Source of the DNA: Planctomycetota bacterium
GTDB taxonomy: Bacteria; Planctomycetota; Phycisphaerae; UBA1845
DNA length: 64,000 nt
Reading direction: 5' to 3'
NCBI GenBank assembly: GCA_016208685.1
Contig: JACQXM010000053.1
Coordinates: 93,957 to 157,956 of the forward strand
Positions 6,420 to 58,080 of the stretch are shown here, in pieces. Numbering within the stretch: the first letter of the stretch is position 1; the number at the start of each line of letters is the position of its first letter. The position numbers and the translations under genes are program-made. The notes under the pieces were generated by a model. That model ran no database searches and was not told the DNA's origin. It saw only the letters and a list, made by a program, of their open reading frames with translations.

Positions 6420-6690
6420 TATTCTGCTCCCTGAACGCCTCACTGCCCCATAAACCGCGAGTCGCGGAGATCGAATGGCGACCTGCCGCCCATTCACCAT
6501 TTCGTCGCCGTTCCTTGCTTCATGTGCGCCTGCGCCGTCGGCCGCACAACGACCTCGTGCGCCGGCTCCGTTTCCCGCCGATCACCCTGCCGCTGGGCTC
6601 GGCGGCGTCAGGGCGCTCCTTCTTTTGCCACCATCCAGGTTCATGGGCCGGTCAAGCTATGACGCCGAAGCGCCCAACGGCGGCGCCAAG

Positions 6691-6891
6691 TCACCCTCTC
6701 GCCGGCTGTCGCGTTTCGTAGCGCACGATCTCCTCTTTGAGCTGGTTAATCAGCCGCCGGATCGAACTCAAGGTCGCCTGGCGCACGGCGCCGTTGTCGC
6801 ACGGCCTCTGCGCCGCCGCGCCGTAAGCCTCCTCCAGCTCATGCAACTTGCGGCGCGTGTTTTCGAGCTCCTGTCCGTTTCGTACGCTCAT
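6691..6891 (-). CDS. Small helical/coiled-coil protein, partner of the DUF6932-like gene
   Basis: 66 aa, ATGA overlap with the upstream gene; ELENTRRKLHELE...INQLKEEIVRYE. Confidence 0.75.
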   Translation of the reverse strand: MSVRNGQELENTRRKLHELEEAYGAAAQRPCDNGAVRQATLSSIRRLINQLKEEIVRYETRQPARG

Positions 6892-7289
6892 AGCACGATT
6901 TCCACAACACCTTTGGGAACGCCGCGCCGGTCCGTCGCGAAGAACCCATCGACGATCTGCTCAAATCCAGCTTTGTCCAACCGGAGGATCTCCAGGAACG
7001 CGAGCCCCTCAACCAAGTCCTCCGCCGCGGCGGCGTCACGCGGATAGTCCGAGGCAAGCAGAAGGGCACAGTCCACGTCGTTGGGCTCAAGCGTATCGCT
7101 TACGAAACTGCCGTTCAAGACGATTCGCTCAACCCCGGCGCGAACAGCGCGGTCAATCATCCAGCGAATAGACTCCATCTGGATTCGACACAGCTCCGGC
7201 GCTCGACCGAACCGTTCCTCGATTTCGTCGCTCGTGGCTCGATGGATGCCTGGGGGCAGAAAGCCGGAGTCCTCGAACGGTGGTATCAG
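6888..7289 (-). CDS. DUF6932-like minimal nucleotidyltransferase-fold protein
   Basis: IPPF..GFLPPGIH, LNGSFVSDTLEPNDVD (GS...DxD motif); apparent non-ATG (CTG) start after AGGGG. Confidence 0.75.
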   Translation of the reverse strand: MIPPFEDSGFLPPGIHRATSDEIEERFGRAPELCRIQMESIRWMIDRAVRAGVERIVLNGSFVSDTLEPNDVDCALLLASDYPRDAAAAEDLVEGLAFLEILRLDKAGFEQIVDGFFATDRRGVPKGVVEIVL

Positions 7290-7393: not shown

Positions 7394-7984
7394 TCAGCCC
7401 TTTTCGGCCACACGCACCTGCACCGTCGGCTGCACGACCATCCCCAACCCGCGGCGCCGCTCGCCGCTGGTCTTCAGGCCTTCTGACTCCACGAGCTTCT
7501 GGATCATCATCACGCCCTCCAGCAGCGTCTCCGGCCGGGGCGGACAACCAGGCACGTACACGTCCACGGGAAGAAACTGATCCACGCCCTGCACCACCGC
7601 GTAGGTGTCGAACACCCCGCCGGTACTGGCACAGGCCCCCATGCTGATGACCCACTTGGGCTCGGACATCTGCATGTAGATGCGCTGCAACACCGGCATC
7701 GCCTTGATCGCCACCCGCCCGGCACAGATGAGCAAGTCGCACTGCCGCGGAGTAAAACGCATCACCTCGGCGCCGAAGCGGGCGATATCGTACCGGCTGG
7801 CGCCGGTTGCCATCAGCTCGATGCCGCAGCACGCCGTCGCGAAGGGCATGGGCCATAGCGAGTTCTTCCGCGACCAGTTGACCGTCTGCTTGCGCAGCAA
7901 ATCCAGCAAGTAGTCCAACCGCGTGGCGAGATACTCTTCCTTGCTGGCCTGGTACGGGGCGGTTTCGGAGAGGCTCAATCCCAT
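7394..7984 (-). CDS. nuoB: NADH-quinone oxidoreductase subunit B
   Basis: [28 protein letters not shown]. Confidence 0.97.
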
Positions 7985-11289: not shown

Positions 11290-11348
11290 GCGCCGCCGCG
11301 ACCGCTTCCGGACCTGCCATCGACCCGGAGGTGTGGGCGATGGAAGAT

Positions 11349-11797
11349 GTGGAATTGGGAATGCGGAAACAGAGCTGCGACCGTGAGGGAGCGGGCAAGG
11401 AACGCGGAATTGGGAATGCGGAATTCGGAAACCCGGCCGCGACCGTCGGTCTGGGTGGCCCATCGCTTTAGCGATGGGGGAGTCGATTATCGCGCAAGAA
11501 CCGGCGCGTACGATCCGTACCGCGACGGCATGGAGCGGTTTCCAACCAGCGGTGCCGCTCCTTGACACTCGCGGTCCTGATACGATCGCCTCGACCGGCT
11601 GGAAAGCCGGTCCCACAGGCATAGCCGCGCCCCGCAGGGAGCGGGCAAGGAATGCGGAATTGGGAATGCGGAACGGAGCCGCGACCGTGAGGGACCGGGC
11701 GGCGAGCCGCGGGCTTTAGCCCGCGCGGCCCGAACGAATGCGGAATGATGGATTCGGAATGCGGAAACAAAGCCGCGTTCGTGAGGGAGCGGGCAAG
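11349..11797. repeat. Mosaic REP-like cluster with heptamer repeats
   Basis: Several AGAGCCGCGACCGTGAGGGAGCGGG-type units, GCCGCGGGCTTTAGCCCGCGCGG, GGCTGGAAAGCCGGTCCCACA, and GGAATTG/GGAATGC heptamers. Confidence 0.85.
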
Positions 11798-31463: not shown

Positions 31464-34400
31464 TCAGCCTTCGGTCGCAAACTCGTCGAACCTGGCGAGG
31501 ATCAGATCTGTGGGCGTGTGCACGCCGGACTCGTCCTCCTCCGCGCGCCGGGCTCCGGTGAAAGTGGAAAGCACGTATTCCACGTCATCGCGCTTGAGGC
31601 CGTAGAGATGGAAAAAAGCGGCGTCCAGCTCTGCCCGCAGCTCTGCGCGTTCGGCGGGCTTCCACTTGTGAATTCCCTCCGCGAACCCCGCGGCTTCCGC
31701 CAGTGGCGCCATGTCCTCGGCGGTGCAGGAGAGCTTGAGCACACGGTCGCTGATCCATCGCTCCAGAGTCAGCTTCCGGTGCCAGGGGCAACGATCGGAG
31801 TATGCGTCCGGCGGAAACAGGGGAAGCTGTTCGACGATGAAGAAATTCAGATGGATGTTTCCGACCTTCTGCCGGGCGATGAAGTCGAGGGCGAAGCTGT
31901 TGAGGTTCGCCAGCAGGCAGCAGCCGGCACGCGGGGTAATCTCATCGCCCGTCAGCATGAGGGGCGCCGAGTTTACGACCGCAACGTGCGGCATGAATGC
32001 GGCAATCATGGTGCGCTCGTTGGTAGGGCTGGTGACGTCCTTGTAGCACAGATAGGCGCACCGGCCGCGCCCGCGCAGAGCGCGATCCACTTCGGCCTCA
32101 TCCACCCACCATCGCGGTTGCACGACGAACTCCGGGTTCTGATGCGAGACCAGGCTCGTGGCTTTGGTCTGCCCCTGGCGCATCCAGTTGTCCTCGTCGA
32201 CGATCACGCCGGCGGCACGATGGTCGTAGGCCTGCACCATCTTGGCCTCGTAGAGCGGAAGGAATACGTGCCGGCGTTTCCGCCAGCGGTTTCCCTCCAG
32301 CTTATAACCGAGCTTCAGAAGCTGCTCCCCGGTGTGAAACAGCTCGGCGTCGTTCGTTTGGTGGAACATCGTGAAGAACTTTATTCCCCACGGGTTGCCG
32401 CCCTTCCTTCGTGTCTTGTCCACGAGAATGGGAACACGTTTGTACGCTCGCCGCGTCAGCTCGGCGTCGCGCCGCGTGCGGAAGACGGGACAAGTGCGGG
32501 TGTTGGGGTTCACGAGCGCGAAGTCCTCGGCGCTGAGTGGAATGTGGCGCTTCCGCTCCGCCAGTTCCTCAACCTCGTGGGCGAAGAAGAAGAAATCCAC
32601 GGCGCGGGTTCTGGTCGTGCTGCCGCCGAAAACCAATGTGCAGAACTTGAAGCGGCTGTCCACGTCGGGGAACTGCCGCCTTCGATTCTCAAAATCGTAC
32701 AGGCAGATCAATGACTTCGACGAGATCAAGTCATGAAAGAACTCCTTCGTGGTATTGTCGGTCGCGATGCCGGAGGGCATGAGCAGTCCGACGCGTCCTT
32801 CGGGGGCTACGATCGACCGTGCCTGTTCCGCAAAAAGGACGTACGTGTTCACGTCGCCTTTGCCGGTCAGCGGGAAGCGACCTGATTCCCTTGTATAGCC
32901 CAGCGTGCGTTCGGCCCTCTGCTTGGCCGCCACATAACGCTCGTACAGCTCCGGGTCGCCGCGCTCCAGCGCCGCGATCATCTTGCGACGCGTGGCAGCG
33001 CTCACTGCCGCCGCGACCTTGGGCGCCGCCAGCGAGAAGAACTCCCGCTCCTGGACCTTGAGTCGCTCCCAGGGGGGGTTGCCGATGACGCAATCGAAGC
33101 CGCCCTCCTTGCGATCGAACACCTCGGGGAAGGTCGCCTGCCAGTTCATCGCCCGCGGATCGACGGCTCGATCGTCCACCAGGCTGTTGCCGCATACCAC
33201 GTTGTGCGAAAGGTCCGCCAGGGTCTTTCCCCGCCGCGCGGAGCGGATCCACAGCGCGAGCTGGGAAATCTCGACCGCCTCTTCCGAGAGATCAACTCCG
33301 AACAGATTGGCGGCCATGATCGTATCGGGGAGGCCGTCGAGCAGGGACTCGACCTTTCGGTCACCGTGATCGCGGAGCCGGGCGGTCACCTCCGCGTACT
33401 TCGCCTCGAAGTAATCGTACGCCCGAATCAGGAAGGCCCCGCTTCCGCAGGCCGGATCGCACACCTTCACGTTGCGCAGCACGTCCAGGCACTCCTCCCA
33501 GGCAGCCTTGGGGGCACGCCTGCCGTCGTGCCCCGAAAGCGTGTTCTCGGGAAGCCCATGCTGCCGCTCGATCCGAGCAAAGCGTTCATCGACTAATGCG
33601 CCGATGGTTAGCTGCACGATCAGATCGGTGAACGCCGGAGGAGTGTAGTAGACGCCGAAGCGCTTGCGCTGCGCGGACTTGGGCATCGCTGCGGGGCGAT
33701 CGTCCTTGGCGGGCACGCTGAACAACCCACCGGCGCGCAGCCGTTCCAGCTCCGTGATCGACCGCTCGAATAGATGCCCGAGCACCTCGACGTTGACTTC
33801 ATCACGGAAATCGTAGTGCCCGATGCGGCGAAAGGCGTTCGTCCACTCATCGTCGAGGTCCAGGCCGTCAACCTCCGGATCCTCGCGGAAGAGTCCGCCG
33901 TCGTACGGGGGGATACTCCGCACGTCATTGCCGCTATCGACGCTGCGGAACAAGTCGCAGAAATTCTGCCAGCGCGGATTGGCGGCGCGGGAGAAAGGCG
34001 GCACGTTGCGCCACGCATCCTCCAACGCATAGGGCGGCAGCAGCCCGCGGTCCTCGCAAAACGCGATGAAGATGACGCGGTCGATGAGACGCTGTGCAAT
34101 GCGAATCGCGTCGTCGACCGATCTTGAGCGGCGGGTGTGCAAGTGATGCACCAGAGCATAGCGCAGGTTGCGGTACTCGTCGTAGAGTTTGTCGCCGACT
34201 TCGAGCTGCCGGGCGTCCGACTCGGCCAGGAGCCGGTCCGCCCGGGGGCGTTGGCCCTTGAACGGCGGGAGAAACGCCCCCCGGCCGAACAGGGCATAGA
34301 ACGCACGGAACCTCTCCGCGTTCTTAAGCTCTTGGAGCGTGAAGTGCTCAAAGGCGTGGGAACCCTTACTCCGGTGATAAAGCCGAAAGCTGACGTAGTT

Positions 34401-34907
34401 GCTTACAATGCCCCAGGGGCATTCCGGAACGGCGTTGAGGTAGTCCCAGCACTGCTGCACCGGCGTACGTCCGGCCGAACGGTCCCGGTCCAGATCGACG
34501 GTGGGCCCTTTCAGCTCGATCAGCGCGCGAGGGCGCTCCGCGCCCGCGGGCGTGAACTTGCCGATGGCGGCGTCCGCCTGCCCGCCGGGAACGGGATACT
34601 CCGGTTGCAACTCCCATTGCGGGAGATTCGCGGAAAGCACCTGGTAACCCAGCGCCCGCCCGAACACTTCCGTAAGAAACTCCGCGTGCAGCGCCGTCTC
34701 GGTCATCCCTTGGAGCCTTCCGCCGGCATCGAGCTCCGCCCATTTGACGAGCACGGCGTGGGCTTCGTCGGTGACGTAGCCCTGGGTGCGCATTTCCTCC
34801 GCGGCCTGTTTGACCATGCGTTCAATGATGAGCCGGCCCCGGCGGCGACCGCTGCCGTAGCGGATGGGGTCGAGCTCATGGAAGAGTAGCGAGCTTTCCG
34901 GATCCAA
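31464..34907 (-). CDS. Type IIG (Eco57I/MmeI-like) fused restriction endonuclease-N6-adenine methyltransferase
   Basis: N-terminal AD..IELK..Q...Y nuclease motif, YYTPP, DPACGSGAFL, GNPPW, C-terminal target-recognition region. Confidence 0.88.
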   Translation of the reverse strand: MDPESSLLFHELDPIRYGSGRRRGRLIIERMVKQAAEEMRTQGYVTDEAHAVLVKWAELDAGGRLQGMTETALHAEFLTEVFGRALGYQVLSANLPQWELQPEYPVPGGQADAAIGKFTPAGAERPRALIELKGPTVDLDRDRSAGRTPVQQCWDYLNAVPECPWGIVSNYVSFRLYHRSKGSHAFEHFTLQELKNAERFRAFYALFGRGAFLPPFKGQRPRADRLLAESDARQLEVGDKLYDEYRNLRYALVHHLHTRRSRSVDDAIRIAQRLIDRVIFIAFCEDRGLLPPYALEDAWRNVPPFSRAANPRWQNFCDLFRSVDSGNDVRSIPPYDGGLFREDPEVDGLDLDDEWTNAFRRIGHYDFRDEVNVEVLGHLFERSITELERLRAGGLFSVPAKDDRPAAMPKSAQRKRFGVYYTPPAFTDLIVQLTIGALVDERFARIERQHGLPENTLSGHDGRRAPKAAWEECLDVLRNVKVCDPACGSGAFLIRAYDYFEAKYAEVTARLRDHGDRKVESLLDGLPDTIMAANLFGVDLSEEAVEISQLALWIRSARRGKTLADLSHNVVCGNSLVDDRAVDPRAMNWQATFPEVFDRKEGGFDCVIGNPPWERLKVQEREFFSLAAPKVAAAVSAATRRKMIAALERGDPELYERYVAAKQRAERTLGYTRESGRFPLTGKGDVNTYVLFAEQARSIVAPEGRVGLLMPSGIATDNTTKEFFHDLISSKSLICLYDFENRRRQFPDVDSRFKFCTLVFGGSTTRTRAVDFFFFAHEVEELAERKRHIPLSAEDFALVNPNTRTCPVFRTRRDAELTRRAYKRVPILVDKTRRKGGNPWGIKFFTMFHQTNDAELFHTGEQLLKLGYKLEGNRWRKRRHVFLPLYEAKMVQAYDHRAAGVIVDEDNWMRQGQTKATSLVSHQNPEFVVQPRWWVDEAEVDRALRGRGRCAYLCYKDVTSPTNERTMIAAFMPHVAVVNSAPLMLTGDEITPRAGCCLLANLNSFALDFIARQKVGNIHLNFFIVEQLPLFPPDAYSDRCPWHRKLTLERWISDRVLKLSCTAEDMAPLAEAAGFAEGIHKWKPAERAELRAELDAAFFHLYGLKRDDVEYVLSTFTGARRAEEDESGVHTPTDLILARFDEFATEG

Positions 34908-39182: not shown

Positions 39183-40732
39183 GGCGCGACAAATACTCCG
39201 CGAAACAGAGCCGCAACCCCCTTTTCGCCCCGCGCGCGAATCGCGCGGGGTCAGTGCCCCGAGTGCAACGTGCGGTCAAACAGAGCCGCGACCGTAAGCG
39301 AGCGGGCAAAGGCGGCAACGAAGCAACGATGGAATGGAGGAACAGAGCCGCGACCGTAAGGGAGCGGGCAAAGGCAGCAACGAAGCGACGAACTGACGAA
39401 GCGACGAAGGGCAGGGTGGCCCACCGCTTCAGCGGTGGGGGACTCGAATCACGCGCGAACGCCGCAGGTCCAAGCCACGGCCCGACCCCGCGTCCGAGCC
39501 CCCCGGCGCGCTCGCGAGTCGGGTGCTTCCTCATCGCCACCGCAGCCGTGCTCATCGCCGGTCATTCCGCCGGCGCACAGGTGGCCGTCCGCGGCAAGAC
39601 CGTCCACACCATGGCCGGGCCGGCGATCGAGAACGGCGTGGTGCTCATCCGCGACGGGAAAATCGCCGCCGTCGGCACTGCGGCACAGGTGCAGATTCCC
39701 GCGGATTTCCAGGTTCTCGACGCCGCCGTCGTCACGCCCGGGCTCATCGACGCACACAGCACCGTCGGCTTCAGCGGTATCCTGAACATCCCCCACGACC
39801 AGGACCAGCTCGAGCACTCCGCCCCCATTCAGCCCGAGCTTCGCGCCGTGGATGCGTTCAACGCCCGCGAGAAGCTGCTGGAGTGGGTGCGCGGCTTCGG
39901 CGTAACCACCGTCCACACCGGCCACGCGCCGGGCGAACTGGTCTCCGGCCAGACCTTGATCGCCAAAACCGCAGGCGAAACCGTGGATCGCGCCGTGATC
40001 GTCCCCTCGGCCACCGTGGCCGCCACGCTCGGTCCCGCGGCACAGAAATCAGAAAAGGGCAAATCCCCCGGCACGCGCGGCAAGATGATGGCCATGCTCC
40101 GCGCCGAGTTTATCAAGGCCCAGGAGTACCTGCGCAAGCAGGAAAACCCGGACGTAGAGAAGCGTCCGGAACGTAACCTGAGCCTGGAAGCGCTGGGGAA
40201 GGTGCTCAAACGCGAGTTGCCTTTAATGGTCACCGCCAACCAGGCGCAGGACATCGACAGCGCCCTGCGACTGGCCAAGGAATTCGAGTTCAAGCTCATC
40301 CTCGACTCCGCGACGGAGAGCTACTTGCTGATCGATGAGATCAAGGCCTCCGGCGTGCCGGTGATTGTCCATCCGACCATGACCCGGGCTTACGGCGAAC
40401 TGCGGAACCTCAGCTTCGAGACCGCGGCCAAGCTGCGGCACGCAGGCATCCCCATCGCCCTGCAAAGCGGCTACGAGGACTACGTACCCAAGACCCGCGT
40501 GGTGCTCTTCGAGGCGGCCATCGCCGCGGGCAACGGGCTCACCTTCGACGAAGCCCTGGCGACCATCACCCTCGACGCCGCGCGCATTCTGGGCATCGAC
40601 GCCCGGCTGGGCTCCTTGGAAGTCGGCAAGGACGCGGACCTGGCGCTGTATGACGGCGACCCCTTCGAATACACTAGCCACTGCCTGGGTGTGGTCATCA
40701 ACGGGCAGGTGTTCAACCAACCGCCCCGGTGA
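39179..40732 (+). CDS. Secreted amidohydrolase-family protein (N-terminus runs through REP repeats)
   Basis: TPGLIDAHS, LGSLEVGKDADLALYDGDP; ATGA overlap with the previous gene; true start uncertain. Confidence 0.85.
   Translation: MRRDKYSAKQSRNPLFAPRANRAGSVPRVQRAVKQSRDRKRAGKGGNEATMEWRNRAATVRERAKAATKRRTDEATKGRVAHRFSGGGLESRANAAGPSHGPTPRPSPPARSRVGCFLIATAAVLIAGHSAGAQVAVRGKTVHTMAGPAIENGVVLIRDGKIAAVGTAAQVQIPADFQVLDAAVVTPGLIDAHSTVGFSGILNIPHDQDQLEHSAPIQPELRAVDAFNAREKLLEWVRGFGVTTVHTGHAPGELVSGQTLIAKTAGETVDRAVIVPSATVAATLGPAAQKSEKGKSPGTRGKMMAMLRAEFIKAQEYLRKQENPDVEKRPERNLSLEALGKVLKRELPLMVTANQAQDIDSALRLAKEFEFKLILDSATESYLLIDEIKASGVPVIVHPTMTRAYGELRNLSFETAAKLRHAGIPIALQSGYEDYVPKTRVVLFEAAIAAGNGLTFDEALATITLDAARILGIDARLGSLEVGKDADLALYDGDPFEYTSHCLGVVINGQVFNQPPR
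39280..39410. repeat. Two REP-like units plus GCAACGAA/GCGACGAA octamers
   Basis: agagccgcgaccgtaagcgagcggg (39282) and agagccgcgaccgtaagggagcggg (39344). Confidence 0.85.
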
Positions 40733-40857
40733 CGCGGCGCTACGCGTACGGTTTCCCACCCACCGCTCGCGCGGGCGACGCCGCGGCGCCGTGGCGAGGC
40801 CCCGCAGTGCCGTGCAGAGGCGGGGGTCGCCTTGGTTCTACGAGTCGGAGCAGCACG

Positions 40858-41175
40858 TTGGTCCGCAAAGTTCCTCAGCTTCCCATGGCCGAGATCGAGG
40901 CCTTGTGCCGCAAGTACGGCGTCAAGGACCTTGCGGTCTTCGGATCGGCGCTGCGCGACGACTTCGGGCCGGAAAGCGACTTCGATTTCCTGGTGACCTT
41001 CGAGAACGATGACAGCGGGCCGTGGATGAATAAAGTCACCGGGCTCGAGGACGACCTCACGGCGCTCCTGGGACGGAAGGCCGACGTCACGTTGCGAAAA
41101 GGCATCGAGCGGAGCGCCAATCGGATCCGCCGGCGCGCGGTCCTTGAGAGCGCCATCATGGTTTATGAATCGTGA
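40858..41175 (+). CDS. Minimal nucleotidyltransferase (MNT) antitoxin
   Basis: VFGSALRDDFGPESDFDFLV, LLGRKAD; TTG start after GGAG. Confidence 0.9.
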   Translation: MVRKVPQLPMAEIEALCRKYGVKDLAVFGSALRDDFGPESDFDFLVTFENDDSGPWMNKVTGLEDDLTALLGRKADVTLRKGIERSANRIRRRAVLESAIMVYES

Positions 41176-41503
41176 CCTTGGAACCGTCGCGGATATCGTC
41201 GAGGCGGCGCGCAGGGTGCAGGAGTTCTTGCGCGGGGTCTCCAGGGAGGAGTTCGTTCGCGACCAGTTGCGTCAGTCGGCGGTCATCCGGGAGATGCAGG
41301 TAGCCGGAGAGGCGGCGAAGCGGGTCTCGCCTGGTTTTCGTGAGCAGCATCCCAGCGTTCCGTGGAGCGACATGGCGCGCTTGCGCGACCGGCTGATCCA
41401 CTGCTACGACGACCTGGACTTCGATCGAATCTGGGAAACGGCGACCGGAAGCCTGCAAATAGTGCGTGCGTATCTGGAAGACCTCCTGGGCAGCGAGCCG
41501 TAG
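41165..41503 (+). CDS. HEPN (DUF86) toxin
   Basis: GEAAKRV, VPWSDM, RDRLIHCY (Rx4H); overlaps the MNT gene. Confidence 0.9.
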   Translation: MNRDLGTVADIVEAARRVQEFLRGVSREEFVRDQLRQSAVIREMQVAGEAAKRVSPGFREQHPSVPWSDMARLRDRLIHCYDDLDFDRIWETATGSLQIVRAYLEDLLGSEP

Positions 41504-41655
41504 GTTCGGGCAGAGCGCTGCATCAGCCGGGACCCTGGGCCGAGGCGTCCCCCTGCCGCACGCCGACCCGAGCCGCCCGGCATCGTCCGCCGCCCCGCCG
41601 CGTTTTGACCGAATGCGGCCCAAGCCCTTACCATGTCGTCTTTGGAGGTCCTTCG

Positions 41656-42819
41656 ATGCCCGATTGCCAGACACCGGATTTCTACAGCTTCGACTCCCTG
41701 CTCTCCGAGGACGAGCGGCAGGTGCGCGACACCGTGGCCAAGTTCGTCGACGACCGCGTCTTGCCCATCATCGCCGAGTGCTTCGAGAAGGAGCGCTTCC
41801 CGTCGGAGCTGATCCCCGAGATGGCGGAGCTGGGCCTGTTCGGCCCCACGCTCACCGACTACGGCTGCGCCGGGCTTAACAACGTCGCCTACGGGCTCAT
41901 CATGCAGGAGCTGGAACGCGGCGACAGCGGCGTGCGCAGCTTTGCCTCAGTGCAGAGCGGGCTGTGCATGTACCCCATCCACACCTACGGTTCGGACGAA
42001 CAGAAGAAGCGCTGGCTGCCGGCCATGGCCCGTGCCAAGGCCATCGGCTGCTTCGGCCTCACCGAGCCCGACGGCGGCAGCGACCCCGGCACCATGAAGA
42101 CCCGTGCCGAGAAGCGCGGCGGCGACTGGATCATCAACGGGGCCAAGATGTGGATCACCAGCGGCACCATCGCCGACGTGGCCGTGGTTTGGGCCATGAC
42201 CGAGCACGGCGTCCGCGGCTTCCTGGTGGAGAAGGGCACGCCCGGCTACACGGCGCGCGACATCCCGCACAAGATGTCGCTTCGCGCCTCGGTCACCAGC
42301 GAGCTCTTTTTTGACAACTGCAAAGTCCCGCTGTCGAGTCAGCTTCCCAAGGCCGAGGGGCTAGGAGCGCCGCTCTCCTGCCTGACGCAGGCGCGCTACG
42401 GCATCGCCTGGGGCGGCATCGGCGCCGCCATCGCCTGCTACCGCGAGGCATTGACCTTTGCGCGGCAGCGGGTCCTGTTTGGCGCGCCGCTGTCGCACAA
42501 GCAGCTTATCCAGGTGCGGCTGGCGGACATGCTGCGACGAATCACGACTGGGCAACTCCTGGCGCTGCAACTAGGGCGGTTGAAGGATCAGGGCGTCATG
42601 CACCACACACAGGTGTCGCTGGCGAAATGGAACAACGTGCGCATCGGGCTGGACGTGGCCCGTGACGCGCGGGACCTGCTCGGCGCTGGCGGCATCAGCG
42701 TGGAGTGTTGCCCGGTGCGGCACATGCTCAACCTGGAAAGCGTGATTACGTACGAAGGCACGGAAACTATTCACCAGCTTATCGTCGGGCGGGAGATCAC
42801 CGGCACGGCGGCGTTTTGA
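41656..42819 (+). CDS. Acyl-CoA dehydrogenase (glutaryl-CoA dehydrogenase-like)
   Basis: ELERGDSG, GCFGLTEPDGGSDP, NGAKMWIT, NLESVITYEGT. Confidence 0.92.
   Translation: MPDCQTPDFYSFDSLLSEDERQVRDTVAKFVDDRVLPIIAECFEKERFPSELIPEMAELGLFGPTLTDYGCAGLNNVAYGLIMQELERGDSGVRSFASVQSGLCMYPIHTYGSDEQKKRWLPAMARAKAIGCFGLTEPDGGSDPGTMKTRAEKRGGDWIINGAKMWITSGTIADVAVVWAMTEHGVRGFLVEKGTPGYTARDIPHKMSLRASVTSELFFDNCKVPLSSQLPKAEGLGAPLSCLTQARYGIAWGGIGAAIACYREALTFARQRVLFGAPLSHKQLIQVRLADMLRRITTGQLLALQLGRLKDQGVMHHTQVSLAKWNNVRIGLDVARDARDLLGAGGISVECCPVRHMLNLESVITYEGTETIHQLIVGREITGTAAF
42673..42819 (+). repeat. Direct repeat copy 1 (3' end of the acyl-CoA dehydrogenase gene)
   Basis: 147 bp, 11 mismatches to 44732-44878 by manual alignment. 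Confidence 0.95.
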
Positions 42820-42834
42820 CTGGGAGGACCTCAC

Positions 42835-43962
42835 ATGGCGGCTCGAACCAAGCTCCCAAACAAGCCGAGCAACGGGAAGGGACCAAGATCGTCCCGCAAA
42901 CCCCATGGGATGTTGACGGCAATTGCGATAAGCGGATTTCGCGGCTTCAGGAGCCTGCGGGTCGACGGGTTAGCGCCGGTCAACATCGTCACCGGTAAGA
43001 ACGGGTGCGGGAAGACGACGCTTCTAGAGGCCACCTTGGCTGTCCACAGCCGCCAGAACCCCGCGTGGATCGTGAACTTGCAAGCGCACCGCGGATTCGC
43101 CGCGATCCAGAAGTCGCTCGGCCCCAATTACCTCGGGCTGTTCCAGGACTTCGACGATTGCGGGATCGCGGAGATAAGGGGGGAATTCGCCGGCGAGGGC
43201 AGTTGGCGCGTGGTTCTCGAGCGCCGAAAGGCAGGCGAGATCGCTGTTTCTGCCCAAGTTCGCTCTTCAACGAGAGCGGACCTTCCGCCCTCAGCCCTGA
43301 CATGCAGGGAGTTCAGGAACAATCGCTCAGTTCCGAATCACGAGGCGACGGTCGAGAGCCTGCCCGAGCCGCCGTTCGTGGTCGTCCGCAACGCCGTTCC
43401 CCCGAGACGACCGGCGATCCTCCTTCATCCGAGTGGTCGCCCCGCCGGTGACGAGGAAGAGAATCGTTTCGGAGAGTCCAAGCTGCGCGGACGCGCACAG
43501 CGGATTGTCGAGGCGCTCCGTGTGCTCGATGATCGGATCGACAATGTGGAGCTCATCAGGACGGCCACAGGAACGTCGTTCTTGGCAGAGTCCGGTGAGT
43601 ACCGTGCGCCGCTAGGCCTGCTCGGCGGCGGGATCAACAACCTCTTTCGCTTCCTTGTCGCCATTGACGGCGCGCCCGGTGGCTTGGTGGCGATCGACGA
43701 GGTCGAGAATGGAATCCACCATTCTCGCCTCCTTGGCGTTTTCAAGGCGCTGATCAGCGCCGCGTCTGAGTATGGAACCCAGTTGGTCTTGAGTACCCAC
43801 AGCGCCGAGGCTCTCGAGGCGATCGGTTTGGCCGCGGGCGAGGCTCCCGAAATACTCGCGGTTGTCCGACTCGACCGTGGCGAGGACGGCAGCGTCGAGG
43901 CGGACGTTCTGCAAGGGGCTGACGCCGTGAACTCGGTTCGATTGGGCTACGAACTTCGATGA
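42835..43962 (+). CDS. ABC-type ATPase (AAA_15/AAA_21, OLD/AbiEii-like)
   Basis: ISGFRGF, GKNGCGKTT, LGGG, IDEVENGIHH, STHS. Confidence 0.88.
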   Translation: MAARTKLPNKPSNGKGPRSSRKPHGMLTAIAISGFRGFRSLRVDGLAPVNIVTGKNGCGKTTLLEATLAVHSRQNPAWIVNLQAHRGFAAIQKSLGPNYLGLFQDFDDCGIAEIRGEFAGEGSWRVVLERRKAGEIAVSAQVRSSTRADLPPSALTCREFRNNRSVPNHEATVESLPEPPFVVVRNAVPPRRPAILLHPSGRPAGDEEENRFGESKLRGRAQRIVEALRVLDDRIDNVELIRTATGTSFLAESGEYRAPLGLLGGGINNLFRFLVAIDGAPGGLVAIDEVENGIHHSRLLGVFKALISAASEYGTQLVLSTHSAEALEAIGLAAGEAPEILAVVRLDRGEDGSVEADVLQGADAVNSVRLGYELR

Positions 43963-44711
43963 TGGATCCCTTCGAGCGTGACCCGGGCGGGAGGCGAGCG
44001 GATTCGATCGGGCGCGTGCCACGCGGCAACGGCGTCGAGTTGAAACGCGGTGCCGTAGTGTTTGTCGGCGAGGGCCGCGACGACTGCGACGTCATCCGCC
44101 GCCTTTCGGCCGATTGGGAGCAGCCTCCTTTGACGTTGACGCGGGACGACCGTGGACAGTTGAAGGACCTCAATTGGAACGACCAGTTTCGAACCCTTGT
44201 CGAGAACGCGTTCGGCCATGGAGTCTCCGCCATTGGTCTGATGTTCGATGCGGACGAGGGGCGGTCCAAGGCAACCAGAACGCTCAAGCGAATGTTCGAG
44301 AAAGCCGAATTGGTTTTCCCTTCCAGGCCTTGTCGTGTTCGATTGCAGAAGCGGGACCGCAAGGTAATCAAGACGGCGTACCTGATCAACCCCCATGGGC
44401 GCCAATCTGGATCGCTGGAGACCCTGTTCCGGATACAGATCGACCACGCGCGGATCGACCGCGCGCCGATCGGCCCCTGCATCAAGGAGCTCATGCGCTG
44501 CTATGAACGGGTTGGAGACGGCGGCATGCACGCGAACCGGGATAAGATCGCCGTACGCACCTATCTTGCGTACCACAAGCCCAGCAACACCGGCCTAACG
44601 GTTGCTCTCCGGGATGCGGTCCTTACATGCGACGGCCCGGAATTCAATGCAATCCGACAGTTCGTAGACCTCCTTCGGCCGCCGAGTACACCCTTGCTAA
44701 ACGGAGGATAA
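43959..44711 (+). CDS. TOPRIM-like (DUF3226-type) partner protein
   Basis: VFVGEGRDD, MFDAD, GSLETL; ATGA overlap with the ATPase. Confidence 0.75.
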   Translation: MMDPFERDPGGRRADSIGRVPRGNGVELKRGAVVFVGEGRDDCDVIRRLSADWEQPPLTLTRDDRGQLKDLNWNDQFRTLVENAFGHGVSAIGLMFDADEGRSKATRTLKRMFEKAELVFPSRPCRVRLQKRDRKVIKTAYLINPHGRQSGSLETLFRIQIDHARIDRAPIGPCIKELMRCYERVGDGGMHANRDKIAVRTYLAYHKPSNTGLTVALRDAVLTCDGPEFNAIRQFVDLLRPPSTPLLNGG

Positions 44712-44731
44712 GATCCGTCAGGTGCTCCGCT

Positions 44732-44878
44732 GACCTGCCTGGCGCCGGCGGCATCAGCGTAGAGTGTTGCCCGGTGCGGCACATGCTGAACCTGGAAAGC
44801 GTAATCACGTACGAGGGCACGGAAACCATTCACCAGCTCATCGTCGGGCGGGAGATCACCGGCACGGCGGCATTTTGA
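44732..44878 (+). pseudogene. Direct repeat copy 2: orphan 3' fragment of the acyl-CoA dehydrogenase gene
   Basis: Encodes GAGGISVECCPVRHMLNLESVITYEGTETIHQLIVGREITGTAAF*, identical to the gene's C-terminus. Confidence 0.95.
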
Positions 44879-45120
44879 GGCTGACGAAATCCGCCACCAT
44901 GCGGGCACGTGGCGGCCACCCGGCGCAGCGTCCCGGAATCCCCGGCAGTCGTGCCCGAACGCGCCGCGCCCGCGCCGACCTGACGCCTCGAAGCGTGCCG
45001 GCCCCCGCGCCGTCCCACCCCTTCCGCCCCCCGTGCGAACCTTGACAACCGCCGGCTCGTCCCCTACCCAATCGCCGGTTCGGCTTTCGGACAACGGATT
45101 CCAGCAGGGAGGAAATCGAC

Positions 45121-46557
45121 ATGCGACGACGAGATTTTCTGGCGGCGGTCGCCGCGACGGCCATGGCGCCGGGCTGCGTGAGTGGACGCCGGGGCGCCGG
45201 CCCGTCCGGCGCACGGCGGACGCGGGCCATGTATGCCACACCGCAGGACGCCGTCCGATCGCCGCGCGAGACGCTGCTCTACACCGTGGGACTGTACACC
45301 GGCACACCGATCGCGGAGCCGGACTACCTGGCGACCGTCGATGTCGACCCCGGTTCCGCCACCTATGGCCGGGTGATCCACCGCCTCCCCATGCCCAACC
45401 TCGGCGACGAACTGCACCACTTCGGCTGGAACGCATGCAGCAGTTGCCACGGCGATCCGCGGCGCTCCCGCGATAAGCTGATCATCCCCGGACTGCGCTC
45501 CAGTCGCATCTACATTGTAAGCGTTGAGAACCCCGCAGCGCCGCGGCTGAGCCGGGTCATCGAGCCCGACGAGATCATGCGCAAGACAAACCTCAGCGCG
45601 CCGCATACTTCTCACTGTCTGCCCGACGGGCACGTCCTGATCTCCATGCTCGGCGATGCCCGGGGCGATGCCCCGGGCGGGTTCCTCCTGCTCGACGACC
45701 GCTTCAACGTCGCCGGACGCTGGGAGCGCGACGCCGCGGGCATGCGGTACAACTACGATTTCTGGTATCAACCGCGGCACAACATCATGATCAGCAGCGA
45801 GTTCGCCGCCCCCAACACCTACTACCCCGGCTTTGACTTGAAGGACGTGGAGGCCGGAAAGTACGGCCAGCGCCTGCACTTCTGGGACTGGTCGCAGCGC
45901 CGACTGGAGCGCAGCGTGGACCTCGGCAGCGAGGGGCGGATTCCCCTGGAGGTGCGCTTCCTGCACGACCCCGCCAGCACCCACGGCTTCGTCGGTGCCG
46001 CCCTCAGCAGCACCGTGTGGCACTGGTACCAGGACGCCGCGGGAACCTGGCGCGTGGAGAAGGTCGTCGAGGTGCCTCCCGTGCCCACGGAGGGGTGGAA
46101 CTTCCCCGTTCCCGGGCTGATCACCGACATCCTGGTCTCCATGGATGATAAGTTTCTTTACTTTTCCGACTGGTTGCACGGCGACGTGCGGCAGTACGAC
46201 ATCGCCGACCCCGCCCGGCCGCGGCTTACCGGCCAGGTCTGGTGCGGCGGGGTCATCGGGCGAAAACCGGACCTCGACGATCGGCGCTTCTCCGGCGGGC
46301 CGCAGATGCTGCAGCTCAGCCTCGACGGCCGGCGGCTCTATGTCACCAACTCCCTGCTCAGCAGTTGGGACAACCAGTTCTACCCCCCCATCGCCCAGCA
46401 GGGCTCGTACCTGCTTCAGATCGACTGCGATCCGCGCGGCGGCATGAAGCTCAACGAGCGGTTCTTCGTGGACTTCGGGAGGGAGCCCGCGGGACCCGCA
46501 CGAGCCCACGAGATGCGCTTCCCCGGCGGCGATTGTTCCTCCGACATCTTCGTGTAA
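45121..46557 (+). CDS. Selenium-binding protein SBP56 / methanethiol oxidase family, Tat-type signal
   Basis: MRRRDFL; DELHHFGWNACSSC, YDFWYQPRHN, GGPQMLQLSLDGRRLYVT, GGDCSSDI. Confidence 0.92.
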   Translation: MRRRDFLAAVAATAMAPGCVSGRRGAGPSGARRTRAMYATPQDAVRSPRETLLYTVGLYTGTPIAEPDYLATVDVDPGSATYGRVIHRLPMPNLGDELHHFGWNACSSCHGDPRRSRDKLIIPGLRSSRIYIVSVENPAAPRLSRVIEPDEIMRKTNLSAPHTSHCLPDGHVLISMLGDARGDAPGGFLLLDDRFNVAGRWERDAAGMRYNYDFWYQPRHNIMISSEFAAPNTYYPGFDLKDVEAGKYGQRLHFWDWSQRRLERSVDLGSEGRIPLEVRFLHDPASTHGFVGAALSSTVWHWYQDAAGTWRVEKVVEVPPVPTEGWNFPVPGLITDILVSMDDKFLYFSDWLHGDVRQYDIADPARPRLTGQVWCGGVIGRKPDLDDRRFSGGPQMLQLSLDGRRLYVTNSLLSSWDNQFYPPIAQQGSYLLQIDCDPRGGMKLNERFFVDFGREPAGPARAHEMRFPGGDCSSDIFV

Positions 46558-49468: not shown

Positions 49469-49664
49469 GCGTGCCACGGCCACGCGCAGGGTGCCATTGC
49501 CAAGCGCGGGGTGCCATGGCCAAGCGCAGCGCCGCCATGCCGTGGAGGCCATCGCGAGCCACGAACGCACGGGGTAACAGAGCCGCGGCCGTCAGGGAGC
49601 GGGCAATGAAAGCGACGGAGCGACAAAGGGTCGGAGCAACCGAGCCGCCACCGTCACGGACGGT
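49469..49664. repeat. Composite REP-like element
   Basis: GGGTGCCATGGCCAAGCGCAGCGCCGCCATGC units joined to AGAGCCGCGGCCGTCAGGGAGCGGG; inverted near-copy at 57797-57920. Confidence 0.85.
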
Positions 49665-49718
49665 GTAAATCAGTGCGAAGTGGTGTAATACCGCCCACGG
49701 TCATTCCGACGCAACTCG

Positions 49719-52422: not shown

Positions 52423-52582
52423 GAACAGAGCCGCGCAAGCAAAGCCGCGAAAGCAGAGCCGCGACCGTCCGGGAGCGGGCGGCGAGCCGCGGGCTTCAGC
52501 CCGCGCGGCCCCGCGGAGTTGCCGGCTGACCCGCTGGAAAGCCGGTCCCACAATCCGAGCCGCGACCGTCCGGGCGCGGGCA
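52423..52582. repeat. Mosaic REP-like cluster
   Basis: agagccgcgaccgtccgggagcggg, gagccgcgggcttcagcccgcgcgg, gctggaaagccggtcccaca. Confidence 0.85.
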
Positions 52583-52936
52583 AAACAGTATCGGGCGGCG
52601 CCGTATCGCGCGCGCCCACTCAGCCACTTCCCTCCGGCGGCGAGCGGGAAAAGGACCACGCCGTCATCCCCACGCGCCCCACCTGCGGAGACCGCTCCCC
52701 CCTCGCCAGGCCGGCGCGAGCGACGGCCGGCAGAACTCCTCCGCAACGCCGCCTCATCCGAAAAAGCGGCCTCCTCCTGCTTATCGGGCGTCCGGGGACG
52801 GCGCCCCTGACTACGATTTGCAGCCCGTCCTCCACTGGTCCGAGAACCCGGTCGAAGAATGCAGAAGAAGCCGGGCGGGGCAATCGGTGCGCCCCGGACG
52901 CGGGCACCGGCGCTGTGCGCCGAACGGTGTTCCTGC

Positions 52937-54295: not shown

Positions 54296-55532
54296 CCGCG
54301 CGCCGCTCGTCGTGCATTACCTGGATTCGCTGGCGCCCGGCGGCACGGAACGCACGCTCGTCGCGCTGCTGGAAGCGTTGGACCCGGCGCGGGCGCGACA
54401 TATCGTGGTGACGGCTCGCGGCGCCGGCCCGCTGGCGTCGAACCTCCCGGACCACGTGGCCTGCCGGGCTCTGGAACGTACCGGCGCCTGCCGCACCGCC
54501 GGCGTGACCCTGGGACGGCTGCTTCGCCGCTGGCGCGCCACGGTCGTGCACACGCGGAACGTCGGCTGTTGGGCCGACACCGTCCTGGCCGGAATCCTGG
54601 CTCCCGCGACGCAGGTCGTCCTCGGATTCCACGGGCGCGAGACAACCAGACCCTTCGGCAGCCGCGAACGCGTCATCACCGCCTTCGCCCGGCGCGGCGA
54701 CACAAGGTTCACGAGCGTATCGCACACTGGAAAAGCGCTGGTCACCGCTCAGCTACGTGTGCCGCCGGAGCACATCACCGTCCTCCCCAACGGGGTCGAC
54801 ACGACGCGCTTCCGCCCGGCGGCCGCGGAATCGCGCGGTCGCGCCCGGGCACGCTGGCGTTTCGGCACCCGTGACGTGGTCGTCGGCATCGTCGGCTCGC
54901 TGACCGGCATCAAGCGGCACGACCTGCTTCTGGAAGCCATGGAGCGAACGGCGATGGACGAGCTGCGTCTGCTCGTCGTTGGCGACGGGCCGCTGCGTGG
55001 CGAACTGACGGTGGCGGCCGAACAGCGCGGCCTCCACCGGCGGGTTACGTTTGCCGGAAGCACCGGCGACGTGCGGCCGCTGCTGGCAGCGATGGATGTC
55101 TACGTGTGTTGCAGCGATCACGAGGGGATCAGCAACGCATTGCTCGAGGCGATGGCTGCCGGACTGCCCGTCATCTCGACCGACGTGGGAGACCATGCGC
55201 GCATCCTCGCCGATGGCGCCGGCATCCTCATCGAAGCCGGCGAGGCCGGAGCCCTGGGAACAGCGCTGGAAACGCTGGCGCGCAACCCGGATGGGCGCCG
55301 CACCCTGGGCCGGGCCGCCCGACGTCGCGCGAAGCAGTTCTCATTCGCACAGGTCGTTCGCGACTACGACGCCTTCTATGCTTCCCTGACCGGAGAAAGT
55401 GCGAGGGGCATGGTGCTTGGCTCCGGAAGGGGGAACGTCTCCGACCTGTTTCCGGCGGAGCGCTCCTTGACCGAACGCCGTGAGCAAACTTCGTGCCACG
55501 TTGCGGCACGGGCCACAGAGCCGCGACCGTAA
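54285..55532 (+). CDS. Glycosyltransferase family 4
   Basis: GGTER, PNGVD, VGDGP, EGISNALLEAMAAGLPVI. Confidence 0.92.
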   Translation: MPTDRAPLVVHYLDSLAPGGTERTLVALLEALDPARARHIVVTARGAGPLASNLPDHVACRALERTGACRTAGVTLGRLLRRWRATVVHTRNVGCWADTVLAGILAPATQVVLGFHGRETTRPFGSRERVITAFARRGDTRFTSVSHTGKALVTAQLRVPPEHITVLPNGVDTTRFRPAAAESRGRARARWRFGTRDVVVGIVGSLTGIKRHDLLLEAMERTAMDELRLLVVGDGPLRGELTVAAEQRGLHRRVTFAGSTGDVRPLLAAMDVYVCCSDHEGISNALLEAMAAGLPVISTDVGDHARILADGAGILIEAGEAGALGTALETLARNPDGRRTLGRAARRRAKQFSFAQVVRDYDAFYASLTGESARGMVLGSGRGNVSDLFPAERSLTERREQTSCHVAARATEPRP

Positions 55533-55655
55533 GAGAGCGGGCCGGCCATGCCGAATGGCGAATAGCGAAACTGAGATCCGCAAGGTGCCCTGGCCAGCCG
55601 CAGCGCCGCCGTGAGGCCGCGGAAGTTGGGTGCCACGAAGGCGCTTCGTGGCCAA
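55515..55655. repeat. REP-like unit, heptamers and degenerate GGGTGCC palindromes
   Basis: agagccgcgaccgtaagagagcggg; gaatggc-gaatagc; ggtgccctggccagccgcagcgccgcc. Confidence 0.7.
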
Positions 55656-57696: not shown

Positions 57697-57796
57697 GTCG
57701 AATCGCCGCCCGGCGCACCTGGTGTCGCACGATGGCACCTGCGCATCCGGTTGCGCCGAAAGCGCAACGCGGAAGGTGGACTCCGCCTTGCCGCAT

Positions 57797-58080
57797 TGCC
57801 TGCCCACGCCCTTACGGTCGCGGCTCTGTTCCCCCGTGCGTTCGTGGCTTGCAGTTTCCCCAACAGCATGGCGGCGCTGCGCTTGGCCATGATACCCTGC
57901 GCGTGGCCATGGCACCCTGCCGACCTCAGGTTCGCCATTCGCCATTGCATTCGCCGTTCGACATTCGCAGCCTTGGATCACCGCCCAAGGCGGCCCTAGC
58001 AGTTCGTAGCGAAAAGCGGCCTACGCGATGTGGCACGGGCCTCCCGCCCGCGAAACCATGGGCTGGAAGCCCGTGCCACG
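57797..58080. repeat. Composite REP-like element, ATTCGCC heptamers and inverted REP pair
   Basis: Reverse copy of the 49.5 kb element; attcgcc runs at 57931-57968; gtggcacgggc...gcccgtgccac at 58029-58079. Confidence 0.85.

Follow-up and report, generated by a model that had tools for sequence, protein, structure and literature searches.

The 3' end of gcdH, a glutaryl-CoA dehydrogenase-like gene, occurs twice in a 64,000-nt stretch of a planctomycete genome (GenBank assembly GCA_016208685.1, contig JACQXM010000053.1; the whole stretch is called the window here, and positions refer to it). An insert of 1,912 nt (42820-44731) with two open reading frames (ORFs) separates the intact gene from a 147-bp orphan copy of its end (Table 1). 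The two copies appear to be coding alleles, one of which would have arrived with the insert, and orphan tails also lie behind gcdH in related genomes. The insert was likely introduced by host recombination functions and not by an integrase.

An ungapped alignment of the copies spans 147 nt and contains 11 mismatches (92.5% identity), and the homology terminates at the stop codon, with no extension on either side. Nine mismatches are synonymous third-position changes, while the remaining two share the third codon of the repeat (CTC Leu versus CCT Pro; 42679-42681), exactly as described in an original prediction made for this DNA. This is the sole pair of such length and identity within the window, and a third copy is absent across the 4.79-Mb, 77-contig genome (multiplicity 1). 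Copy 1 includes a YEGT motif, the Glu of which serves as the catalytic base in this family. The top PDB matches of the gcdH product are glutaryl-CoA dehydrogenases (E values of 1e-138 to 1e-108), and no NCBIfam equivalog scored above its cutoff. Copy 2 lacks a start codon of its own, and its reading frame is still open.

Only 25 to 28% of random point changes in the repeat stretch are expected to be synonymous, and drift of one free copy would yield nine synonymous changes out of nine with a P value of about 2e-4 to 6e-4 (0.0015 to 0.004 when the edge codon is counted). In a related genome (G093), the pair of gcdH tails shows 8 synonymous and 0 nonsynonymous differences. Both tails of the window appear to have been coding during most of their divergence, and the predicted coding selection on both copies was borne out. 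Synonymous-only divergence argues that one tail arrived with the cargo and makes drift after a local duplication unlikely. It had further been predicted that a foreign allele displaced the resident one. While the arrival of one copy with the cargo agrees with this, codon usage did not single out the resident copy: six sites have the commoner genomic codon in copy 2 and three have it in copy 1, the orphan carrying GTA, GTA, and GCA at the latter. Over the last third of gcdH, the GC content at third codon positions (GC3) is 0.81, down from 0.92, and 7 of 494 genes (1.4%) are as extreme.

The cargo consists of an ATPase gene (375 amino acids from a start at 42835, or 350 from 42910) and a DUF3226 gene whose start overlaps the ATPase stop (ATGA). 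As read from the sequence, the ATPase has intact Walker A (GKNGCGKT), signature-like (LGGG), Walker B (IDEVE), and H-loop (STH) motifs, and it matches Pfam AAA_21 (E = 5e-16) and the PADLOC models PDC-M38A (2e-35), AbiLi (8e-34), and AriA (1e-17). Its partner matches Pfam DUF3226 (9e-13) and, weakly, PDC-M38B (2e-4); residues E38 and D97 are invariant among 10 aligned homologs. A structure model of the partner, built from this 10-sequence alignment (pLDDT, 83.5), resembles PH0156 (2p62; Z = 12.1 over 188 residues, root mean square deviation 3.4) and the C-terminal regions of OLD nucleases (6njv, 6njx, 6nk8, and 6njw; Z = 8.6 to 8.9). Foldseek returned no match to this model at an E value of ≤0.001, with OLD ranked first (6e-3), and no model match to AriB (DUF4435) was found for the cargo at an E value of 0.01. 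An ABC ATPase with intact motifs beside a partner of predicted TOPRIM fold is the two-gene arrangement of the PADLOC candidate PDC-M38 and of PARIS and OLD/Gabija-like systems, and the cargo matches both PDC-M38 models. In contrast to PARIS, Pfam assigns the partner to DUF3226 rather than AriB, and the PDC-M38B match is weak. No paper on DUF3226 or PDC-M38 turned up in the literature that was searched. On the strength of its architecture, the cargo is predicted to be a candidate anti-phage defense pair, and the profile and structural matches agree with the earlier label of a defense cassette.

A Shine-Dalgarno-like GGGAGGA close to the ATG and just 3' of the gcdH stop suggests that the cargo may be read from the gcdH transcript. 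A scan of the insert revealed no promoter-like site, and no terminator-like site was found across 41400-45300. The coding statistics of the cargo are foreign: its coding score falls in the bottom 1 to 2% among genes of >600 nt, and the insert has a GC content of 62%, compared with 67% for the genome. Among 80 surveyed loci that contain a relative of the ATPase, 61 of them with sufficient flanking sequence, a direct repeat of at least 30 nt brackets 12 and an inverted one brackets 3. Eight repeat-flanked loci were inspected (two from one organism, one a paralog end), and most repeat a neighbor's end, an internal stretch, or intergenic DNA. These repeat-bracketed relatives at unrelated targets suggest that the cargo family uses the same insertion route elsewhere. 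In a relative (G011), another ATPase pair, with a DUF4276-like partner, lies directly upstream of gcdH (L024:11692-13454).

In three family-wide searches, the gcdH tail matched 75 of 100, 37 of 42, and 60 of 68 other genomes, some of the 75 through a distant paralog only. Six of these 172 genomes (G075, G135, G201, G104, G093, and G205) carry an extra gcdH tail 0.7 to 6.2 kb downstream; G135 has three tails at one locus, and G212 has an extra tail on a separate contig. In line with the recurrence proposed for small cassettes, the layout is seen again at gcdH in other genomes. Adjacent tails were found in 0 of 194 genomes for enolase (13 had a second match, on other contigs or 1.8 Mb away), 0 of 92 for uvrC, and 0 of 87 for metK. 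The difference between gcdH and enolase has a Fisher P value of 0.010, or 0.052 when counted by genus, in a comparison in which related genomes are not independent, three cases belong to one genus, thresholds differed slightly, and the control genes may sit in tighter operons. Scanning at the DNA level covered loci with at least 2 kb downstream, 74 of 79 for gcdH and 39 of 40 for enolase. It picked up the five loci already known at that stage to bear tails, which had been selected for that property, and elsewhere nothing stood clearly above the null. Two weaker tails, in L166 (-69, score 22) and as a second tail in G075 (-38, score 16.5), lie near the null (maximum, 17.5) and were not counted as strong, and a second match in G184 was dropped as a paralog at a contig end. 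A literature search for a gcdH insertion hotspot returned nothing relevant.

The left edges of the orphan tails, counted back from the gene end, lie at -113, -114, -117, -133, -140, -147, -153, -154, -159, and -187, with -153 and -154 representing one ancestral cassette that has 880 nt upstream in common. Duplication length therefore varies from 113 to 187 bp at gcdH. The edges cluster at -133 to -159, where erosion could blur a fixed crossover site, and this is also where the last 600 nt have their GC-richest well-conserved 30-mer (-153 to -124; GC, 0.78; 24 orthologs). The cargo at the tails of relatives is mostly toxin-antitoxin (BrnT-CopG, PIN, Fic, and DUF433). BrnT-CopG pairs are located immediately behind gcdH in G075, G135, and one unrelated metagenome contig; in the latter (L124:1407-1933), the pair is homologous to those of the two genomes and no orphan tail is present. 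G201 and G135 agree in one cassette end and its tail edge, while the preceding cassettes differ. In G135 (contig C7, L116) and G075 (contig C3, L117), arrays of toxin-antitoxin cassettes are separated by orphan gcdH tails, each cassette opening with a TATAAT-like box soon after a gcdH stop; a 303-amino-acid unannotated ORF of these arrays has a decayed counterpart in G201.

The genome-wide scan for duplicated gene ends proposed in the original prediction showed that the layout recurs. Among 3,028 genes searched for matches to their own 3' ends (score of at least 25), nine had a strong downstream match, several of these being paralogs or internal repeats, compared with one upstream and none on the opposite strand. 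Unique repeats of 40 to 400 bp that were at least 80% identical, 0.8 to 7 kb apart, and not both within genes comprised 19 direct and 0 inverted pairs, at 15 loci and with lengths of 43 to 341 bp. Eight of the 15 loci enclose methylase, restriction, toxin-antitoxin, or (at gcdH) ATPase cargo, one is a tRNA-Met attachment (att) site with a resolvase remnant, another contains an IS200-like transposase, and paralogous domains may account for some. A route specific to the 3' ends of housekeeping genes was only partly confirmed: the layout recurs at gene ends, but repeats also cover intergenic DNA, a 5' end, and a riboswitch-like leader. The clearest second case is uvrC, whose 3' end is duplicated over 330 bp with 93% identity (C47:41062-43310; L225). 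Its copies differ at 17 synonymous and 4 nonsynonymous codons and by one 1-bp indel, and they enclose a 443-amino-acid ORF without Pfam or NCBIfam match, a candidate defense gene of a new type. The weaker case at nuoB that had been paired with gcdH adds little: this gapped match of 59 columns and about 70% identity (7414-7472 versus 6526-6583, minus strand) ends about 20 nt before the stop codon, and its score was reached in 3 of 2000 shuffles and in 6 of 3000 segments drawn at random from the genome, uncorrected for the choice by eye.

Other direct repeats of this genome enclose a PemK pair (C38:28323-29562), HicB (C59:22989-24667), an Eco57I-type restriction-modification (RM) gene (C73:23959-27258), and Mrr with the IS200-like transposase (C44:143308-145818), the last between repeats that resemble a phage terminase fragment. 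A methylase and an unannotated partner lie between 255-bp intergenic repeats (C31:64405-67882; L226) and again between 136-bp 5'-end repeats (C63:142493-144745; L227); these are likely type II RM systems. A 95-bp direct repeat upstream of thiC (C39:285-3295; L233) resembles a thiamine pyrophosphate (TPP) riboswitch.

Profile searches detected no integrase or transposase family in the insert, and neither the insert nor its surroundings contain a mobility gene. Of the recombinase matches in the genome (6 tyrosine recombinases, 1 serine recombinase, and 2 resolvases), none is on the gcdH contig, in agreement with the predicted absence of such genes. No match to the genome's seven recombinases was found between gcdH and the tail in the tested tail-bearing loci, a set without G205 and G212. 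Within 9 kb downstream of the tested gcdH and enolase loci, the sole integrase lies in L164, 8.2 to 8.9 kb from a gcdH that has no tail. Searches of viral contigs for a relative of the gcdH tail gave 79 pattern hits, none of which was confirmed, and 2 of 50,697 phage records matched it, both beneath full annotated dehydrogenase genes. No shared hairpin, arm, or junction element was detected among 27 flanks except for two explained pairs.

The arrangement could in principle reflect the merging of two strains during assembly, or the misjoining of an empty chromosome with a circular cassette at their shared sequence, but this is extremely improbable. Logan contigs were available from four groundwater runs of a single study, two of which may be the source of the assembly itself. 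In one run (X1), contigs spanning 40813-42810 and 42783-44869 both had 0 differences, and the second runs from the end of copy 1 through the cargo into copy 2; depths were 7.6 to the left, 7.5 in the cargo, and 5.3 to 8.5 to the right. Another run (X2) gave the identical path in three pieces. None of the four runs contained variants, indels, or joints that skip the cargo at 90% likeness, although such contigs drop rare variants. Logan contigs (k = 31) break where the two copies have an identical stretch of 32 nt (42781-42812) and give no phasing across it. The contigs alone are therefore compatible with an empty chromosome plus a circle, a reading disfavored by the equal depth, by the genome assembly, and by the same layout in unrelated assemblies.

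Variable edges, unrelated targets, and the lack of a common junction element or of an integrase-bearing element at gcdH favor host recombination. Ranked first, with roughly even chances of being correct, is a single RecA-type crossover between the gcdH tail and a circle composed of a donor tail and the cargo. The donor DNA would have come from a close relative whose own gcdH tail had the cassette directly behind it, and it would have been trimmed and then closed into a circle. Integration inside the gcdH tail would rebuild gcdH and place the cargo on its transcript, leaving the other tail orphaned downstream. With further rounds, cassettes headed by tails would pile up, the newest nearest the gene, as in G135 and G075, and the gcdH end is likely favored as a conserved homology anchor at an insertion-tolerant spot. 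We infer the donor, the circularization, the dependence on RecA, and the defense function. In Escherichia coli, cut DNA with one-sided homology gave duplications in 56 of 60 recombinants; those of 14 sequenced recombinants measured 109 to 950 bp and were ascribed to trimming, recircularization, and a single crossover, as described in PMC3240628. The single crossover is ranked first because this reported product matches the locus. Matches to comEC and dprA are present in the genome and lend weak support, as they are also common in control genomes (10 and 11 of 14, respectively).

Several observations weigh against the single crossover. Neither an empty site nor a donor was found in the four Logan runs or in a pattern scan of metagenomes, which returned one non-syntenic contig, and the insertion itself is therefore inferred. 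The original prediction had pointed to empty-site relatives; in G001, a genome of the same genus, gcdH is present and both cargo and tail are absent, but the neighbors differ. Six of the 10 left edges fall within -133 to -159, which is tighter than random trimming, although two of them represent one ancestral event. Codon preferences are mixed and no clean crossover point is visible, while the low GC3 may record a replaced tract longer than 147 bp or repeated exchange. The closest homolog of the cargo (L034, 39% identical) has no flanking repeat. A further idea, which we regard as unlikely, is that the gcdH 3' end serves this order as an integrase-free, integron-like loading platform, with tail-headed cassettes looping out as circles between successive tails, or traveling together with an orphan tail that supplies another homology arm, before reentering at gcdH in another lineage. 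Left edges would then be inherited, and toxin-antitoxin and defense genes would be shuffled as units. The cassette end and tail edge common to G201 and G135 and the BrnT-CopG pairs behind gcdH are in line with this idea.

In an insertion resembling homology-facilitated illegitimate recombination (HFIR), a linear donor would have recombined upstream in gcdH, and an illegitimate joint would have linked its far end to the recipient gene at a point 147 bp ahead of the stop codon, so that the resident tail was left behind. The low GC3 across the last third of gcdH and the centering of left edges on the GC-richest 30-mer are consistent with this; illegitimate joints prefer GC-rich sequence. The same model has been proposed for displacement arrays of type VI secretion system (T6SS) and Rhs genes (PMC5361080). 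However, HFIR products are reported generally to carry a deletion of similar size rather than a duplication (PMC3240628), whereas gcdH shows a duplication. Rare codons are common to both copies, so that the low GC3 does not point to a single incoming allele, and at three of the nine synonymous sites it is the orphan that has the rarer codon. The homology-facilitated option of the original prediction ranks next after the single crossover and is unlikely. Its other option, an att site within the coding sequence, shares this rank and is likewise disfavored. Here, an integrase-encoding island would have used the LGAGG codons of gcdH and supplied a replacement 3' end in the manner of e14 at icd, with its integrase since lost or with mobilization in trans. 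The geometry and synonymous differences do resemble icd/icdC (PMC13626634), one gene is reused while the three control genes are not, edges cluster, and the sole nonsynonymous change at the source locus is at the edge. Against this, young, nearly intact tails begin at different positions (-133, -147, and -148/-153), tested loci have no integrase between gene and tail, viral and phage records provided no confirmed independent tail, no arm sequence is held in common, and the identical layout is found at unrelated targets of the source genome. A local tandem duplication of the gcdH end with later insertion of the cassette between drifting copies needs no donor allele, and chance insertion between repeats is a class listed by Furuta et al. 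(PMC2853133). It is nevertheless very unlikely and close to refuted by the synonymous-only divergence, both in the window and in G093.

Insertion with long target duplication is already in print, which limits the surprise: the table of Furuta et al. lists direct repeats of 25 to 423 bp, often 86 to 100% identical (PMC2853133). As in those insertions (inserts of <20 kb, unique direct repeats of >30 bp, no mobility genes), the gcdH insert is short and flanked by a unique repeat, and the repeats described there likewise often span a start or stop codon and leave the target intact (PMC2853133). The probable type II RM cargo at the two methylase loci fits their RM class. In contrast, the cargo at gcdH is an ATPase-TOPRIM pair without R and M homologs (AAA_21 and DUF3226) and is toxin-antitoxin in relatives, so that breaks made by a restriction cargo are not needed; the gcdH copies are two coding alleles rather than a fresh target copy; and gcdH was hit repeatedly, leaving serial tails. 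The serial use of a single metabolic gene end recalls the T6SS and Rhs arrays and icd/icdC.

The system of Amarir-Bouhram et al. (2011) likewise duplicates a gene end around foreign DNA without an integrase and depends on RecA, but it is described as laboratory E. coli conjugation with engineered cuts and broad edges, unlike gcdH (PMC3240628). At e14/icd, too, a functional end on one side faces an orphan C-terminal fragment (icdC) with synonymous differences on the other, and at gcdH the copy in the intact gene similarly restores the full 3' end. In contrast to e14, described as a 15-kb excisable prophage (PMC13626634), the gcdH insert measures 1.9 kb, has no recombinase between the copies, and belongs to a set with variable edges. 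The T6SS and Rhs arrays described by Kirchberger et al. (2017) also grow by serial addition at a conserved anchor that pushes older units downstream, with no integrase known according to that report, but their variable payload is the gene's own 3' end, whereas gcdH keeps an invariant enzyme tail and carries its payload as separate genes (PMC5361080). Small defense and toxin-antitoxin islets are often located between core genes without a mobility gene (PMC13617665). The gcdH locus would offer a readable scar, with donor and recipient alleles, of how such islets first arrive, and a concrete substrate for integrase-free gene capture, with one metabolic gene end reused across several genera. An orphan synonymous gene tail could serve as a simple signature for spotting candidate defense genes. 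The e14 prophage has an integrase of its own.

Table 1. Features of the gcdH locus (positions in the window)
Feature	Position	Strand	Basis
gcdH, glutaryl-CoA dehydrogenase-like, 387 aa, intact, insertion target	41656..42819	+	Acyl-CoA_dh N/M/C domains
Repeat copy 1, last 48 codons and stop of functional gcdH	42673..42819	+	Alignment
Shine-Dalgarno-like GGGAGGA	42822..42828	+	2 bases 3' of gcdH stop, 6 nt before ATG
ABC-type ATPase (AAA_21/AAA_15)	42835..43962	+	Pfam, PADLOC, motifs
DUF3226 protein, 250 aa, predicted TOPRIM fold	43959..44711	+	Pfam, PADLOC, structure model
Spacer of 20 nt, junction of cargo and orphan tail	44712..44731	+	Sequence
Repeat copy 2, orphan gcdH tail	44732..44878	+	Alignment
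Downstream host gene, SBP56/methanethiol oxidase-like	45121..46557	+	Domain and family profiles

Elsewhere in the window, an MNT-HepT toxin-antitoxin pair lies just 5' of gcdH (40885-41503), and no flanking repeat was found for it. A DUF6932 nucleotidyltransferase-like gene and a 66-amino-acid partner are located between nuoB and nuoC (6691-7178), and a similar pair is present at C63:140515-141113. An Rfam scan of the window gave no match. A dispersed intergenic family resembling repetitive extragenic palindromic (REP) elements occurs in both orientations at 11347-11797, 39258-39434, 49486-49669, 52431-52584, 55493-55642, and 57784-57921. The minus strand encodes a 1,147-amino-acid type IIG/Eco57I-like RM protein at 31464-34907.

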